From Nitrospiraceae bacterium (lineage in GTDB: Bacteria; Nitrospirota; Nitrospiria; Nitrospirales; UBA2166): a stretch of 43,850 bases of DNA. Below the pieces are notes generated by a model. That model ran no database searches. It was not told where the DNA came from and worked only from the letters and a program-made list of their open reading frames with translations. This document shows positions 25,878 to 31,864 of this stretch, one piece after another; the first letter of the stretch is position 1, and the number at the start of each line of letters is the position of its first letter. The DNA lies in assembly GCA_002726235.1 (NCBI GenBank), contig PBSN01000006.1, forward strand, positions 1-43,850, in the 5' to 3' direction. Both the position numbers and the translations under genes were made by a program.

Positions 25878-25908
25878 TTGACATATCTGGAGCAATAATC
25901 TATATATT
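25878..25908 (+). promoter_or_regulatory. Putative sigma70 promoter of the cytochrome operon
   Basis: TTGACA-N17-TATATATT about 190 nt upstream of ATG 26101. Confidence 0.45.
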
Positions 25909-26100: not shown

Positions 26101-27729
26101 ATGGATAGATCAACACCTTTCGTGCTCAGTCACAAATGGCTGGCACTCACTGTAGTTGGCGTAGCCTTTACACTCACTATGGGTTGCGGTGACAGTGACA
26201 GTGACACAACTACCCCGGAGACAGGCACAGCAACCCAAGCGACAGCCGAGCAACCTGCGGAGTTCGTAGCTGCACTAGGTGATTTTACCGACTACCGTTA
26301 CTGGCGGACGCTTGATTATAGCACGGGCTATACGAATCCATACCTTGTCGACAAACACATGGCAGCTGATAACGCCTACTCTCGGCGCGTATGGATTAAC
26401 GAGCCCGGAGCGAGATCGCGAGAAGCCGGAGAAGCCTCCTATCCGCTAGGAACAGTCATTGTCAAGGAAACGTTTACTTGGGACGAGAGCGGAAACAAGC
26501 AATTCGCTGCCATGGGTGGAGTGTTGGGCATGGTAAAGCGCGGTGGAAATTTCAACAAGGATGGGGAGCATTGGGAATGGTTCATGCTAGCCTCAGACCC
26601 TGCAACTAGTGCCCTTGAAGAAATCAAGGACCGTGGCGGAGCCTCTCTCATGGATGGCATGTGTAACAGCTGTCACGCAAGCGCGAACGCCCAGACTGAG
26701 GGCTCAGACATGGTATTTGCGCACCCCTCAGACATTGAGGTCACGGACGGATTTTTCGCCGATTACGCCACATGGTCGGTCATACAAAATACTCCGGAAA
26801 ACCACGTCCTGTTGAGCATGGCGCACAAAAGCGCAGACCCGGACACCATACGCACAGTCTACAAGAAGCAGCTCCAGGCCAACCCGAAACACACCCCTGA
26901 CACATACAACGTAATCGCGGACGTGTACCCGATTGGGACGGCCATTCTGAAGACGGTCGCAGACGCGACTGGTGCCATTATCGAGATCACGGCCATGGTC
27001 AAGCGCGCCCCGGCCTTTAACGAAGATCACGGTGGCTGGGAATGGTTTATGCTTGATCCAGCTACAGCCGGTGTTATGCCAGAAATGCGAGGAGCAGGCT
27101 TGGGCAACAATATGTGCAACACATGCCATATTGCGGCCACGGGACCCTCTGGCCTGAATGGCGTTGACTACGTGTTTAAACACCCGAATGACCCATTCGT
27201 CAATATGGGAGAACCCGTAGTACCAGAAGTTGCACCGGAACCAGCAGCCGCAGAAGAAACGGTAGCGGTAGCAGAACCAGTAGCCGCAGAAGAACCGGCA
27301 GCGGCAACGAGCAATTTAGGCCCAGCCGCATTTAAGGCTGACTTTGCAACATCTCCGGAATTCTACACCAACATGATTGCACTGAATTCTAGTAACCCTC
27401 CCTCTCCCCACAATGCGGTCAAAATCTGGTACTCGATAAACATGCAGGAAATGGCTGCAGCTGGCAGTACGGGACCGTGGCCTGAGGGAACCACGTCCAT
27501 TAAACAGGTGGATATGGCGCCAGCAGATGGAGTCATCGACGAAATTGTTGTGATGATTAAGATGGCTGCTGGATACGATACAGCAAACGGCGACTGGTAC
27601 TACGAGGCGCGCGATGCAAATGGCACCCTCTTGACCGACGAAGCCAAAGCGCCTGGAAAGAATGCCATGTGCATCGGCTGTCACGCTGCAAATTCAAAAG
27701 ATTACTTGGCAGGCCTAGATCTACGCTAA
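26101..27729 (+). CDS. Trihaem lipoprotein with three tandem cytochrome P460/c'-beta family domains
   Basis: LTMGC lipobox; three units each with P.GT...K, M(V/I)K, W(E/Y)(W/Y) and a CxxCH near the unit's C-terminus (26662-26676, 27115-27129, 27670-27684); GGAGG before ATG 26101. Confidence 0.85.
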   Translation: MDRSTPFVLSHKWLALTVVGVAFTLTMGCGDSDSDTTTPETGTATQATAEQPAEFVAALGDFTDYRYWRTLDYSTGYTNPYLVDKHMAADNAYSRRVWINEPGARSREAGEASYPLGTVIVKETFTWDESGNKQFAAMGGVLGMVKRGGNFNKDGEHWEWFMLASDPATSALEEIKDRGGASLMDGMCNSCHASANAQTEGSDMVFAHPSDIEVTDGFFADYATWSVIQNTPENHVLLSMAHKSADPDTIRTVYKKQLQANPKHTPDTYNVIADVYPIGTAILKTVADATGAIIEITAMVKRAPAFNEDHGGWEWFMLDPATAGVMPEMRGAGLGNNMCNTCHIAATGPSGLNGVDYVFKHPNDPFVNMGEPVVPEVAPEPAAAEETVAVAEPVAAEEPAAATSNLGPAAFKADFATSPEFYTNMIALNSSNPPSPHNAVKIWYSINMQEMAAAGSTGPWPEGTTSIKQVDMAPADGVIDEIVVMIKMAAGYDTANGDWYYEARDANGTLLTDEAKAPGKNAMCIGCHAANSKDYLAGLDLR

Positions 27730-27736
27730 TTTAATA

Positions 27737-27771
27737 AGGGAATAGTTCCCTATAAAGGGGAACTATTCCCT
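27737..27771 (+). other. Intercistronic perfect 14-bp stem-loop
   Basis: agggaatagttccc-tataaag-gggaactattccct; no U-tract follows on the + strand. Confidence 0.8.
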
Positions 27772-27786
27772 GTAAAATAGGTGTCA

Positions 27787-28923
27787 ATGCGCCGCACGTT
27801 GCTTGTTCACATTGTACTTCTGGGGTTGTTCCTATTTCTATGGGCCGAGGTCGCCTCGGCCGTTCCCCGCTTTTCCATGCGAACCGGCCTGTCGTGCAAC
27901 GCATGTCACGTGAATCCAAGTGGGGGGGGAATGCGCACCGAGCATGGAAGCTTGTACGGGCGTATGAACCTCCCCCTCAACCCCACCATGCGAGCCAAGG
28001 GCGAGAAATTCAGCCCGAAAATTACCAAACACCTCACCGTGGGGTCAGATCTCCGCGTAATGGGGTTCTCTGATAATCGGCACAATCTCAGTTTCTTCCC
28101 AATGCAGGCGGACCTCTATATTTCCGCCCAACTGACCGACAAAGTCCTGCTCTACCACGATCAAAGCCTGCTTTCCAGCGAGATTGAAACCTTTGGTCTC
28201 GCTCAAATCCTACCGTTCTCAGGCTACGTCAAGGCAGGAAAGTTTGTTCCAGCATTCGGATGGAAGCATGATAATCATACGGCCTTTACGCGCGGAGGGA
28301 ATTCGAGTTCGCGAGAAGTCGGGCAAGTAACCCGCGGCACAGGGTTCAGTCGGGATGATAAAGATACTGGCGTCGAGGTTGGATTCTATCCAGGACAAGC
28401 CTCCATTCAATTGGCCGTCCTGAATGGACAAAGAGGAGGCATCCCGTTTGATAACAATCAGGGTAAAGCCTATGTCGCGCGAGCAGATTACTTTATTCTC
28501 AACTTCGAGCATCTGAAGACAAACGTCGGAGGATCGTTCTATCACAACGATGCGGAGACCTTTGAACGACAGATCTATGCCGGCCATGCCGGAATCAACC
28601 TGTGGAAATTAACGTATCTCGGCGAATATGACTGGAATGAGCTATCGCGAGACACCACGCCACGCGTAAAAAGTACGGCGCAATATCACGAGCTTAGCTT
28701 TCTTCCTGTCCAAGGGATTGATCTGAAGGGGATATATGAACACATAGATCCAGATCGTAATATCGATCGTGATGAGCTCTCCAGAATTGGAGCAGGGATA
28801 GAATTTTTCCCCTTACCTCATAATGAAATTCGTCTCGAATACCGTCATACCACGGGGCATAAGGAAATCAACCCTGATGCCGGGTTAGATGAAGTCTTTC
28901 TCATGTACCATTTTTATTTTTAA
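27787..28923 (+). CDS. Outer-membrane beta-barrel with an N-terminal monohaem c motif (Cyc2-like cytochrome-porin fusion)
   Basis: Signal peptide ending ASA, then VPRFSMRTGLSCNACH; amphipathic beta-strands; C-terminal beta-signal YHFYF. Confidence 0.8.
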   Translation: MRRTLLVHIVLLGLFLFLWAEVASAVPRFSMRTGLSCNACHVNPSGGGMRTEHGSLYGRMNLPLNPTMRAKGEKFSPKITKHLTVGSDLRVMGFSDNRHNLSFFPMQADLYISAQLTDKVLLYHDQSLLSSEIETFGLAQILPFSGYVKAGKFVPAFGWKHDNHTAFTRGGNSSSREVGQVTRGTGFSRDDKDTGVEVGFYPGQASIQLAVLNGQRGGIPFDNNQGKAYVARADYFILNFEHLKTNVGGSFYHNDAETFERQIYAGHAGINLWKLTYLGEYDWNELSRDTTPRVKSTAQYHELSFLPVQGIDLKGIYEHIDPDRNIDRDELSRIGAGIEFFPLPHNEIRLEYRHTTGHKEINPDAGLDEVFLMYHFYF

Positions 28924-30344: not shown

Positions 30345-30869
30345 TTACTTCACATCAATTGCCATGACGAGAAAATCAACGCCGAGAGTTCGACCATGAT
30401 GAGGCTCGGTATAGGTTCCGTCATAGTAATACCACTGGTGGGGAGTCATCTCCCCGAGTTCGGAGGGAAGTGGCGGTAATTTCTTGGCATTAAGCCCACT
30501 CGCAACAAATGTCTCGGGGTTGAGAAAATACAGCACATCTTCGGTTGTATTCTCTGGTGTGTGCGAAAAATGAACCATATTACGCTGTGATACCCCGTCT
30601 AACATACAAAACTGTTTAGTTTTGTGTGAGAGATCAATAGCCATCAGCCCAGACCCTGGCAACAGTAAATTCGCAATGGCGTTGACCTCTGCACGAGCCG
30701 ATCCGGTCACGACATCAATAGGCTCAGGCTGCTCCTCAGCGGCTTTCGATCCTTCTTCGCCTCCCTTAAGAAAGTCGAAAACACCAGCGGCAAGAGCCGT
30801 CTCCAGTGGCAACACCAACACCATGAATATACTCATCATGGCGAACATAAGTTTTGCTTCCTTCATCAC
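30345..30869 (-). CDS. Exported hypothetical protein with His/Cys motifs
   Basis: Signal peptide (ALA), AGGAGG Shine-Dalgarno, motifs FCM, MVHFS, QWYY, EPHHG. Confidence 0.75.
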   Translation of the reverse strand: MMKEAKLMFAMMSIFMVLVLPLETALAAGVFDFLKGGEEGSKAAEEQPEPIDVVTGSARAEVNAIANLLLPGSGLMAIDLSHKTKQFCMLDGVSQRNMVHFSHTPENTTEDVLYFLNPETFVASGLNAKKLPPLPSELGEMTPHQWYYYDGTYTEPHHGRTLGVDFLVMAIDVK

Positions 30870-30983
30870 GAAAACCTCCTTCCTGACATCTCAGGTTGAC
30901 CATTCTGTACAGCTCGCAATACAGACTGAGCAACATTCCACCACGTTCTCAGGATTTGAGTCAATGCAATTAAGTGTGCATGA

Positions 30984-31613
30984 TCACAACTTAATGGATG
31001 AAACGAGTTGATTGAGCCACTTGATTGGGAAAAACATCGACACAGTTTCCTGGTACCGCCGGTAAGGAACCCCAAACATCACAACCAGTTTTCGTTCTTC
31101 GAAATACGTCCCTATAAACAGATACACGGTCAGGACAGCATTAGTGACAAGCGTCACGACAGACACGTCTCGGGCCCACAGAAAAAGCAGCAACGCAAGG
31201 TACCACGGATGCCGTACTACGCGATGAATGCCGGAGATAGTCAAGACTGGTGAGGACGTATCACAAGATCCAGCACGATAAGCTGCAATTTGCCGAATAC
31301 CTAAAAACTCACGCCCATCATATCCACGCATACCCAGTGCGAAAAATAGGATACCGAGAGCCCAACACAGATATTGAATCAGAGTGTACGGCCATACCCA
31401 TTGTAATATCGGGGAAACATGTATGGAAACGGAAAACCAGAGAATTGGGATCAACCCAACGATGCTCACCACATTGTAGGTGAGGCGATAATACGCCGCC
31501 GCAACACCCCAGCATTGCTTGATCCAGTTCGCAACGGAGGGCGCAGCCAAGACACTGTGCACAGTACCATACCCAGCCCAGCACAACCCGAGCGTAACAA
31601 GATCTGACCACAT
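30984..31613 (-). CDS. ICMT/NnrU/MddA-like membrane methyltransferase-family protein
   Basis: Multiple TM segments, VHSVLA, GIHRVVRHPWY, FEERKL...FG..Y..Y...V.MFFP. Confidence 0.82.
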   Translation of the reverse strand: MWSDLVTLGLCWAGYGTVHSVLAAPSVANWIKQCWGVAAAYYRLTYNVVSIVGLIPILWFSVSIHVSPILQWVWPYTLIQYLCWALGILFFALGMRGYDGREFLGIRQIAAYRAGSCDTSSPVLTISGIHRVVRHPWYLALLLFLWARDVSVVTLVTNAVLTVYLFIGTYFEERKLVVMFGVPYRRYQETVSMFFPIKWLNQLVSSIKL

Positions 31614-31864
31614 CAGCCACGGTGAGAGACGTTAGGACCCCTCACACGTGTCATAACCCGCATGGCAGGAGAGGAGGGACGCCGTGGCGAGGTCATGCTC
31701 TCGCTTGGCGGCATGTTGGGACAGAAATATCCACAGTTGACACAACGCATCCCATCCACTTGATGAACGTCATTATCAATACTTCTATTTTCATCACCTA
31801 CCATGAGCCCACGGCAACGAACACAACGCAACATACACCTCCCCGTTTGCCTCATAGAAAACAC
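31613..31864 (-). CDS. Small zinc-ribbon protein
   Basis: CVRCRGLMV...RCVNCG (two CxxC pairs); its stop overlaps the next start (TGATG); the start could be 31834. Confidence 0.65.
   Translation of the reverse strand: MFSMRQTGRCMLRCVRCRGLMVGDENRSIDNDVHQVDGMRCVNCGYFCPNMPPSESMTSPRRPSSPAMRVMTRVRGPNVSHRG

Follow-up and report, generated by a model that had tools for sequence, protein, structure and literature searches.

A tri-domain P460 lipoprotein encoded beside a Cyc2-related haem-porin in a marine Nitrospirales bacterium

The subject of this study is a pair of adjacent genes in a 43,850-nucleotide (nt) stretch of DNA (the window), which is one whole contig (PBSN01000006.1) from a member of UBA2166, a marine family of the Nitrospirales that lacks nitrite oxidoreductase (NXR). 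Gene 1 encodes a predicted lipoprotein with three domains of the cytochrome P460 fold, and gene 2 encodes a beta-barrel with a single N-terminal haem c motif (CxxCH). The two folds, the haem motifs, the recurring adjacency of the genes, and the residues of the P460 pockets are direct observations. We conclude that the locus is probably one local version of a widespread outer-membrane redox unit, composed of a single-haem porin and a swappable exported redox partner. Our preferred interpretation, which is tentative and to which we give somewhat less than an even chance, is that a modular haem-porin exchanges electrons with low-potential, His-capped P460 haems and is not part of a four-haem wire leading from Fe(II) to P460.

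Results

Architecture of the lipoprotein

The two genes and their parts have the following positions in the window (aa, amino acids).

26101..27729, + strand: gene 1, tri-P460-fold lipoprotein, 542 aa, ATG start and TAA stop; from Pfam, homologues, and a model
26101..26187, + strand: signal peptide and lipobox ending at Cys29 (sequence LTMG-C29), predicted lipid anchor
26257..26730, + strand: P460 domain 1, residues ~53–210, with His86, Arg95, Lys122, Leu142, and CxxCH 188–192; from profile alignment to NsP460/NeP460
26734..27201, + strand: P460 domain 2, residues ~212–367, with His242, Arg251, Lys284, Thr297, and CxxCH 339–343
27202..27312, + strand: acidic Ala/Glu/Pro/Val tether, 37 aa (11 A, 8 E, 6 P, 6 V), disordered in the model
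27313..27729, + strand: P460 domain 3, residues ~405–542, of a different sub-branch, with His437, Lys468, Val483, and CxxCH 524–528
27787..28923, + strand: gene 2, monohaem cytochrome-porin, 378 aa, ATG at 27787 (alternative GTG at 27781) and TAA stop
27862..28011, + strand: N-terminal haem domain of gene 2, residues ~26–75, with CxxCH 37–41 followed by the family motif xxPxGGGMR
28033..28920, + strand: 16-strand OprP-like beta-barrel, residues 83–378; from the model and structure comparison

Three stretches of gene 1, with CxxCH at residues 188, 339, and 524, matched Pfam Cytochrome_P460 (expectation value [E] 4.2e-24), and domain 3 by itself scored above the Pfam cut-off (30.5 bits). In the model, residues 41–211 and 213–365 matched P460/c'-beta structures with Z scores of 10–12, and the P460 profile aligned to NsP460 and NeP460 with a best E of 1.5e-6. 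Single-sequence searches of the Protein Data Bank (PDB) with both proteins gave no significant match, the P460 structures being reached by profile only, and the ESM Atlas matches were limited to unnamed porin clusters and single-domain P460 clusters. Cys29 was conserved in at least 90% of 36 alignment rows, and a loose lipobox pattern was present in 52 of 60 gene 1 homologues. An earlier reading made from the letters of the window (the sequence-only reading) had described gene 1 as a lipid-anchored protein with three CxxCH P460 domains and gene 2 as a beta-barrel with one N-terminal CxxCH. Both descriptions hold: the lipobox at Cys29 points to an anchor, the three Pfam stretches correspond to the domains, and the model of gene 2 has 16 strands with the CxxCH at residue 37.

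Domains 1 and 2 are 34% identical to each other and make up the conserved core of the family. Domain 3 is separated from them by the tether, where the predicted local distance difference test score (pLDDT) falls below 50 (residues 368–403), and shares only 23–35% identity with the other two over ~80 residues. Two relatives of domain 3 were found among 11 candidates scored, and such a relative also occurs as a stand-alone lipoprotein (P0326). The 60 homologues of gene 1, found among the 8000 best candidates scored, contained two, three, or four P460 domains. Their forms were di-domain proteins of ~320 aa (one of them named Poribacteria), three other tri-domain proteins (P0122–P0124), tetra-domain proteins of ~650 aa, and tetra-domain proteins with an extra N-terminal monohaem domain (~780–800 aa). 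The nearest named record, "Nitrospiraceae bacterium UBA2166," was 87% identical to gene 1, and a ten-genome phylum sample around G050 contained no further multi-P460 protein.

Two other members of the family were observed in different settings. P0178 is a di-P460 protein with an inserted monohaem domain and a type IX secretion C-terminal tail, which suggests that some multi-P460 proteins are secreted past the outer membrane. In Ca. Magnetomicrobium (L018:4748-9710), genes for an unrelated porin and two pentahaem cytochromes precede that of a di-P460 protein to which three class I haem domains have been added, a further type of porin-cytochrome setting in which the P460 family occurs.

P460 pocket residues

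The Lys that is cross-linked to the haem in known P460s (position of NeP460 Lys70 and NsP460 Lys106) is present in all three domains as K122, K284, and K468, in 35/36, 36/36, and 6/6 alignment rows, respectively, and in 151 of the 153 P460 domains found by pattern. The distal carboxylate position (NeP460 Glu96, McP460 Asp102) is occupied by L142, T297, and V483, and none of the 153 domains has Asp or Glu there; in the NsP460/NeP460 profile alignment, L142 was aligned to Ala/Glu131. The sequence-only reading had connected the unit with hydroxylamine or N-oxide chemistry. Because the carboxylate position is never Asp or Glu, chemistry of the known type is unlikely, and so, on the same evidence, is hydroxylamine oxidation by the gene 1 domains.

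The third characteristic of the pockets is a His in the capping loop, found as H86 and H242 in 36/36 rows each and as H437 in 6/6. H437 aligns four residues before the position equivalent to Arg44, the alignment position held by the capping Phe of NsP460 and TtCP-beta, and we infer that the capping-loop His is a candidate ligand of the haem iron.

These features place gene 1 beside, but apart from, the characterized cytochromes P460 (NeP460, McP460, NsP460) and c'-beta (PF16694; PMC11928373). The fold, the C-terminal CxxCH, and the cross-link Lys position are common to both groups, as is the Arg44-equivalent position in domains 1 and 2, and NsP460 likewise has no distal carboxylate. In contrast, the characterized proteins are soluble single-domain homodimers, whereas the gene 1 family is predicted to be lipid-anchored, has two to four domains per chain, and is genetically tied to an outer-membrane haem-porin. 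The capping residue is Phe or Arg in characterized members, and the invariant capping-loop His is the candidate for it in gene 1; c'-beta has Phe or Met at the cross-link position, which is Lys in all three gene 1 domains. Lipoprotein, multi-domain, or fused P460 forms are not mentioned in the available part of the review.

Fold and family of the barrel

The product of gene 2 starts with a signal peptide, has its only CxxCH at residue 37, and ends in Phe; C37, C40, H41, G46–48, and R50 were invariant in 84 alignment rows. The AlphaFold2 model contained 16 strands with a mean pLDDT of 87. Its best Foldseek match was OprP (E 1.7e-13), and comparison with 16-stranded porins gave Z scores of 24.0–24.5 (24.0 for OprP) and a root-mean-square deviation (rmsd) of 2.4–2.6 over 269–282 residues. 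There was no haem-porin structure among the fold matches listed, and a search of NCBIfam at E 0.1 left the barrel without a family assignment. A homologue search gave 247 matches, and the family formed 598, 2062, and 3584 clusters at 50% identity for E up to 1e-30, 1e-10, and 0.001, respectively. An N-terminal CxxCH, scored with a position cut-off, was found in 117 of the 120 barrels listed; two of the other three were incomplete sequences, and one had the motif further in. Named members of the family came from Ignavibacteria, Bacteroidota, Nitrospirae, and Deltaproteobacteria.

The sequence-only reading had called gene 2 a Cyc2-like haem-porin. Cyc2 is defined by a 16-strand OprP-like barrel, the motif AXPXFAR[Q/K][T/Y], and the motif PXL (PMC8406198). 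Like Acidithiobacillus ferrooxidans Cyc2, Mariprofundus Cyc2PV-1, and Leptospirillum Cyt572 (PMC8406198), gene 2 has the signal peptide, the spacing of the N-terminal CxxCH from A-x-P-x-F, and the barrel. It also aligned over its full length by hhalign to a Cyc2-motif profile (99.45%, E 4.7e-22, 333 columns) made from 13 Nitrospirota proteins chosen by motif and not by name. In this comparison the score of an unrelated porin, entered as one sequence, was 17%, and BLASTP of gene 2 against a Cyc2-motif protein matched only 19 residues. The diagnostic motifs, however, were both absent. Among the 245 sequences with an N-terminal CxxCH, out of 264 examined, neither AXPXFAR[Q/K][T/Y] nor PXL occurred; gene 2 has AVPRFSMRT, which keeps A-x-P-x-F, and xxPxGGG[MLV]R follows the haem motif in 184 of the 245 instead. 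Gene 2 is also shorter than Cyc2 (~370 aa), and the genes next to those of its family are for lipoprotein cytochromes, YceI, P460, or multicopper oxidases. Because the architecture and the full-length homology are those of Cyc2 and the diagnostic motifs are missing from all 245 members, we conclude that the barrel, as judged by sequence, belongs to a sister family of Cyc2 without a name and is not Cyc2 itself. Some members may already be present, unnamed, in Cyc2-like lists such as Table S3 of PMC6344600.

The barrel also differs from the porins of MtrCAB and OmbB-OmaB-OmcB, in which a decahaem wire fills a large barrel that has no haem of its own, whereas gene 2 is a small barrel with its own single haem, and its partner haems at the UBA2166 locus are of a ligand-binding fold. 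Comparison of the gene 2 model with MtrB gave a Z score of only 12.6 and an rmsd of 9.4. Geobacter ExtI was considered as a further haem-porin but was dropped because it has no haem motif according to PMC5877670.

Weak matches to the N-terminal part of the barrel occurred in 164 of 301 genomes of the phylum. Most were other proteins, including Cyc2-motif proteins and open reading frames (ORFs) of ~310 aa ending in WRWW, and full-length members were found in only seven of the 301 besides the host genome (G000). The WRWW proteins (L136–L157, Nitrospirota) share the N-terminal monohaem domain of the barrel (A-T-x-x-F/Y-A...CxxCH...GGG); because they have this domain without a barrel, the small haem domain is itself mobile. 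Two barrel-family members (L129:1498-2691 and L135:1306-2559) have two CxxCH in the N-terminal domain. The P460-linked Cellvibrionaceae barrels at L019:8834-9979 and L030:9927-11057, each followed by a class I cytochrome c, lack Met49, Met106, and His164, which are near-invariant in other barrels and are candidate distal haem ligands.

Pairing of the two genes across genomes

Among 40 relatives of the host, the barrel was found in all four congeners and in none of the 36 genomes of other families. Two of the four congeners, both more than 90% complete, also had gene 1, in each case directly upstream of the barrel. The wider comparison of multi-P460 genes comprised 18 genome loci (L014–L031; two distant single-domain matches were left out), and a barrel was encoded within 2 kb at nine of these. 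At L028 the locus ran off the contig, and the same genome has a barrel after a P460 C-terminal fragment on another contig; the remaining loci without a barrel were two short contigs and six complete loci.

In a sample of 251 Cellvibrionaceae genomes, a multi-P460 gene was present in 10 and a barrel in 32. The barrel was directly downstream in five of the 10, namely those with a monohaem domain at the N-terminal end of the P460 chain; the other five (two of them fragmentary) had no barrel match. In the phylum of G584 (201 genomes), a di-P460 gene was present in seven genomes, adjacent to a barrel in six (one divergent), and a barrel match in 72. In G654 the P460 and barrel genes are divergent and do not form one operon. 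Several of the sampled genomes had also been a source of sequences for the query alignments, and related genomes do not count as independent cases. Among the genomes with the pairing are those of Agaribacterium haliotis (L030), with the tetra-P460 form, and Marinagarivorans sp.

A tree of 111 barrels contained 16 P460-adjacent ones, with six changes of label, at least five of them forced by well-supported branches; short contigs may hide some partners in this tree. Because the P460-adjacent barrels fall on separate branches, the pairing arose or was lost repeatedly. The recurrence of the pair across genomes that the sequence-only reading suggested checking was found, in several unrelated lineages. 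The pairing is, however, optional in both directions, and the two families do not constitute the dedicated system that had been suggested. The literature search, which left most subscription journals outside its scope, found no description of a combination of P460 with a Cyc2-like haem-porin, in agreement with the claim that this combination has no described precedent. Prediction of a complex of the barrel (residues 26–378) and P460 domains 1 and 2 (residues 50–368) with three haems, domain 3 not being included, gave a score of 0.00 and a mark of 0.32, which speak neither for nor against binding.

Partners of the barrel

The genes beside the barrel nearly always encode redox proteins: planctomycete-type cytochrome c, YceI, cupredoxin, or multihaem cytochromes. 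A planctomycete-type cytochrome c was encoded at 55 of the 78 metagenome barrel loci, and at 19 of the 25 flanked by 1.5 kb or more in each direction; the profile for it was built from neighbours in L023–L113, that is, from the same loci as were counted. This profile also matched 15/15 independent Cellvibrionaceae loci. YceI genes were found at 24 of the 100 loci clustered.

Outside UBA2166, all 12 barrel plus multi-P460 loci examined contained a planctomycete-type monohaem domain (fused in five, neighbouring in seven), versus none of 11 multi-P460 loci without a barrel. The UBA2166 loci and the ORFs of the host genome had no planctomycete-type domain, but had the third, tethered P460 domain, and the UBA2166 locus encodes no haem partner besides the P460 lipoprotein. 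These distributions suggest that the barrel may require a mobile one-haem adaptor, a role that domain 3 may fill in UBA2166.

The closest relative of the window barrel on the tree (Shimodaira-Hasegawa-like approximate likelihood ratio test [SH-aLRT] 99) was its own paralogue, 58% identical. Three complete loci of the genus have the paralogue and the gene for an MnxG-like multicopper oxidase together in an operon. The operon in the host genome is as follows.

G000:C8:242022-257332 (L120): NosD-like beta-helix, 1718-aa MnxG-like oxidase, fusion of CusF, cytochrome c, and a periplasmic-binding domain, YVTN propeller, barrel, and SMBP-like protein

The part from the oxidase to the SMBP-like gene is conserved in two congeners. 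The oxidase matched 9bxa with an E of 2.4e-80; because the NCBIfam MnxG model gave 81 bits against a cut-off of 3100, the 1718-aa protein is a distant relative of MnxG. The likeness to MnxG-type manganese oxidase operons concerns the paralogue barrel and not the gene 1-gene 2 locus.

A conserved cluster in Cellvibrionaceae (L183–L197) combines a haem barrel with a Lipoprotein_15-repeat lipoprotein and a planctomycete-type monohaem lipoprotein. An alginate-export-like porin and an extracytoplasmic function (ECF) sigma/RskA anti-sigma pair are also present there, usually on the opposite strand (Pfam was run on one locus).

Locus layout and RNA data

The host genome is 1.87 Mb in size and 90.65% complete, and it encodes haem c maturation genes. 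No NarG/NXR-like gene above cut-off was found in it. The UBA2166 family is reported to be non-nitrifying, lacks NXR, fixes CO2 by the reductive tricarboxylic acid (rTCA) cycle, and lives in sediments and vents (PMC12342949). Table S9 (family-specific clusters) of the host-family paper contains one uncommented row for Pfam Cytochrome P460, in two genomes.

Coordinates and annotation agree with the earlier description of the locus as two co-directional genes 57 nt apart, with a divergent ferritin-like gene upstream (Rubrerythrin E 0.007, below cut-off) and a convergent ECF sigma and zf-HC2 anti-sigma pair downstream. The ferritin-like gene and the ECF pair were present at the locus in one of the two congeneric genomes compared and absent from the other; they are therefore not fixed parts of the unit. 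Two further features were found in the DNA around the genes.

27737..27771, + strand: intergenic RNA hairpin, 15 bp, without a U-tract on the + strand; from fold energy compared with shuffles
25878..25883, + strand: possible −35 hexamer TTGACA (weak), ~220 nt upstream of gene 1; from alignment of upstream DNA, shared with one of two congeneric genomes

The hairpin had a fold energy of −26.1 kcal/mol (z −5.6), and none of 200 shuffles was equally stable. Of the three genomes compared, only that of the host contained it; in the two congeners the gap between gene 1 and gene 2 is 2 and 35 nt. The comparison thus ruled out the hairpin, like the flanking genes, as a fixed part of the unit. The hexamer was not called by the promoter scan. 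Sites found by the promoter and terminator scan were no more common than in shuffles (5 versus 3.8 and 4 versus 3.6).

Parts of the window were present in eight RNA runs from four studies, and a stretch of it in two hydrothermal-vent runs from one sample. Coverage was taken from contigs in four runs, and such contigs show neither level, strand, nor absence. One contig in run X1 spans the gene junction (27318–27981). This contig is compatible with co-transcription, weakly so, since a single transcript was not demonstrated and DNA may have been present in the library. In runs X1 and X3, large parts of the barrel gene had no listed contig cover. Past the ECF pair, window positions 30345–31864 encode an uncharacterized 174-aa exported protein and a methanethiol S-methyltransferase-like protein (below cut-off); long contigs of the RNA libraries extended over both genes in two vent runs from a single sample, and the methyltransferase-like family is also encoded close to four other barrel loci.

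Other redox loci in the host genome

A cluster at G000:C13:58478-66410 (L123) encodes a di-haem peroxidase-like protein, a Rieske subunit, an AioA/IdrA-type molybdoenzyme (TIGR02693, above cut-off), a 335-aa protein, a second di-haem peroxidase-like protein, and a cytochrome c. The whole resembles an iodate-reductase (IdrABP1P2) cluster. A second cluster, at G000:C8:394160-401461 (L124), encodes three monohaem cytochromes with weak matches to SoxA, two di-haem SoxX-like cytochromes, a propeller, and a SoxYZ-like pair, and a SorAB-like sulfite dehydrogenase is encoded at C20:16498-18276.

Discussion

We propose, partly by analogy with characterized proteins, that the unit works as follows. The barrel would lie in the outer membrane with its c-type haem plugging the periplasmic mouth, as modelled for Cyc2, and the lipoprotein would be anchored to the same membrane, its domains 1 and 2 forming a single-chain version of the P460 homodimer. 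Each P460 haem would be able to form the Lys cross-link and would thereby have a low potential, and the invariant His of the capping loop would close the distal site, so that the haems would carry or store electrons and would not oxidize hydroxylamine. In most lineages a planctomycete-type monohaem domain, fused or adjacent, would shuttle electrons between the barrel haem and the partner; in UBA2166 the third P460 domain, on its flexible tether, would substitute for this shuttle. Net flow would likely be outward, from the P460 haems to the barrel haem and on to extracellular acceptors (oxidized metals, quinones), and the unit would serve to mobilize metals or to keep redox balance, not to sustain growth by lithotrophy.

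A number of points weigh against this proposal. With regard to the pairing, the six complete multi-P460 loci without a barrel came from four genomes with no barrel match, one with a weak partial match, and one with a barrel elsewhere. Multi-P460 genes without a barrel match were found in Geothrix fermentans, Marinagarivorans algicola, G044, and G421. Conversely, of the 32 Cellvibrionaceae genomes with a barrel, 27 lack an adjacent P460 partner, and only three of the 78 metagenome barrel loci have a P460 neighbour, compared with the 55 that have the planctomycete-type cytochrome. With regard to the pockets, the His of domains 1 and 2 lies nine residues before the Arg and not four, in a longer loop (127 of 158 matches show the spacing of nine). 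Such a His might face away from the iron or serve as a base, and its position at the iron is read from the sequence register. Cross-link formation and the potentials of the gene 1 haems are borrowed from other P460s. The adaptor idea derives from the gene content of three genomes of one genus, and from a profile built from neighbours of barrels. The lipoprotein may face either side of the membrane, and the type IX tail of P0178 would point to the outside.

Three other explanations were weighed. The first is that the P460 domains have become enzymes through changes in the pocket, the invariant His taking over from Glu as the general base, and that they remove peroxide, NO, hydroxylamine, or reactive halogen species at the envelope, while the haem-porin supplies or drains electrons or admits substrate. 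This is unlikely. In its favour, the cross-link Lys, kept in nearly all domains, serves catalysis in known P460s and matures through reaction with peroxide, and a c'-beta with a polar cap has peroxidase-like activity (PMC11928373). ECF sigma/anti-sigma pairs flank many such loci, and the genome contains the AioA/IdrA-type cluster with its two di-haem peroxidase-like genes. However, NsP460 without the carboxylate is inactive on NH2OH, its activity being restored by Glu only, and the cross-link Lys of NeP460 suppresses peroxidase-like activity (PMC11928373). An internal source of NH2OH is not evident, because the genome has no NarG/NXR-like gene above cut-off and the family is reported to be non-nitrifying, and the ECF pair and the ferritin-like gene are themselves missing at the locus in one of two congeners.

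The second explanation, which we consider rather unlikely, is that the genes are co-regulated in an envelope regulon without direct electron exchange. The barrel would then serve other cytochromes or help to place lipoprotein cytochromes at the surface, and P460 would be a repeated passenger. The scarcity of P460 neighbours at metagenome barrel loci, the many multi-P460 genes without a barrel, the divergent genes of G654, and the strong hairpin between the genes in the host genome are all in its favour. It is opposed by the adjacency on at least five separate barrel branches and by the fusion of the usual monohaem partner to the P460 chain in five Cellvibrionaceae. Also against it are the 2-nt gap in one congener and the P460 lipoprotein being the one haem partner encoded at the UBA2166 locus.

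The third explanation takes the sequence-only reading in its Cyc2 sense: the barrel would oxidize Fe(II) or Mn(II) and pass electrons inward over a four-haem chain to the P460 haems and on to respiration, and so power an autotroph. This is very improbable. It draws on the full-length homology to Cyc2-motif proteins with the same predicted architecture, on the rTCA cycle, lack of NXR, and sediment and vent habitats of the host family, on the sister barrel in an MnxG-type operon, and on the presence of the window in two vent RNA runs of one sample. Against it, both Cyc2 motifs are absent from the family, and Agaribacterium haliotis and Marinagarivorans sp., both heterotrophs, have the pairing as well. 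The haems of solved P460 dimers face outward on opposite sides, and cross-linked P460 haems have potentials of −340 to −424 mV (PMC11928373), far below those of Fe(III)/Fe(II) at pH 7 (0 ± 100 mV) and of Cyc2PV-1 (+208 mV) (PMC8406198). Because of this difference, an inward wire from Fe(II) to the P460 haems would run uphill. The same arrangement and potentials fit poorly with a stacked four-haem wire as the form of the conduit that the sequence-only reading proposed.

A more far-reaching form of our preferred reading, in which modular haem-porin and P460 haems exchange electrons, can also be stated. It holds that gene 1 represents a new P460 subfamily with a Lys-cross-linked haem closed by a distal His, which would be an electron carrier of very low potential unlike any described, and that its docking through tethered domain 3 on a one-haem porin creates an outer-membrane electron conduit of a new type. 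The barrel family, with P460, planctomycete-type cytochrome, YceI, and multicopper oxidase as interchangeable partners, would be a general envelope electron socket in many phyla and part of the energy metabolism of UBA2166. At present we regard this as decidedly doubtful.

The locus contributes a three-domain P460 chain at a site that lacks the common adaptor, the survey of pocket residues, a paralogous barrel within an MnxG-type operon, and a host that has no NXR. If the preferred reading is true, there is a new branch of P460 at the outer membrane, with the Lys kept, the carboxylate lost, an invariant His, two to four domains, and a lipid anchor, and the role of the cross-link outside hydroxylamine oxidation becomes directly testable. 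It would also mean that a large Cyc2-like family works with exchangeable partners, and does so in many lineages that are not known to oxidize iron. For the reading of genomes, the results are a caution that "Cyc2-like" does not mean iron oxidation and "P460" does not mean nitrification. The named genome of Agaribacterium haliotis, with its tetra-P460 gene and barrel, offers an experimental route. For UBA2166, the only family of the Nitrospirales without nitrite oxidoreductase, the two copies of the barrel are leads to its redox metabolism.

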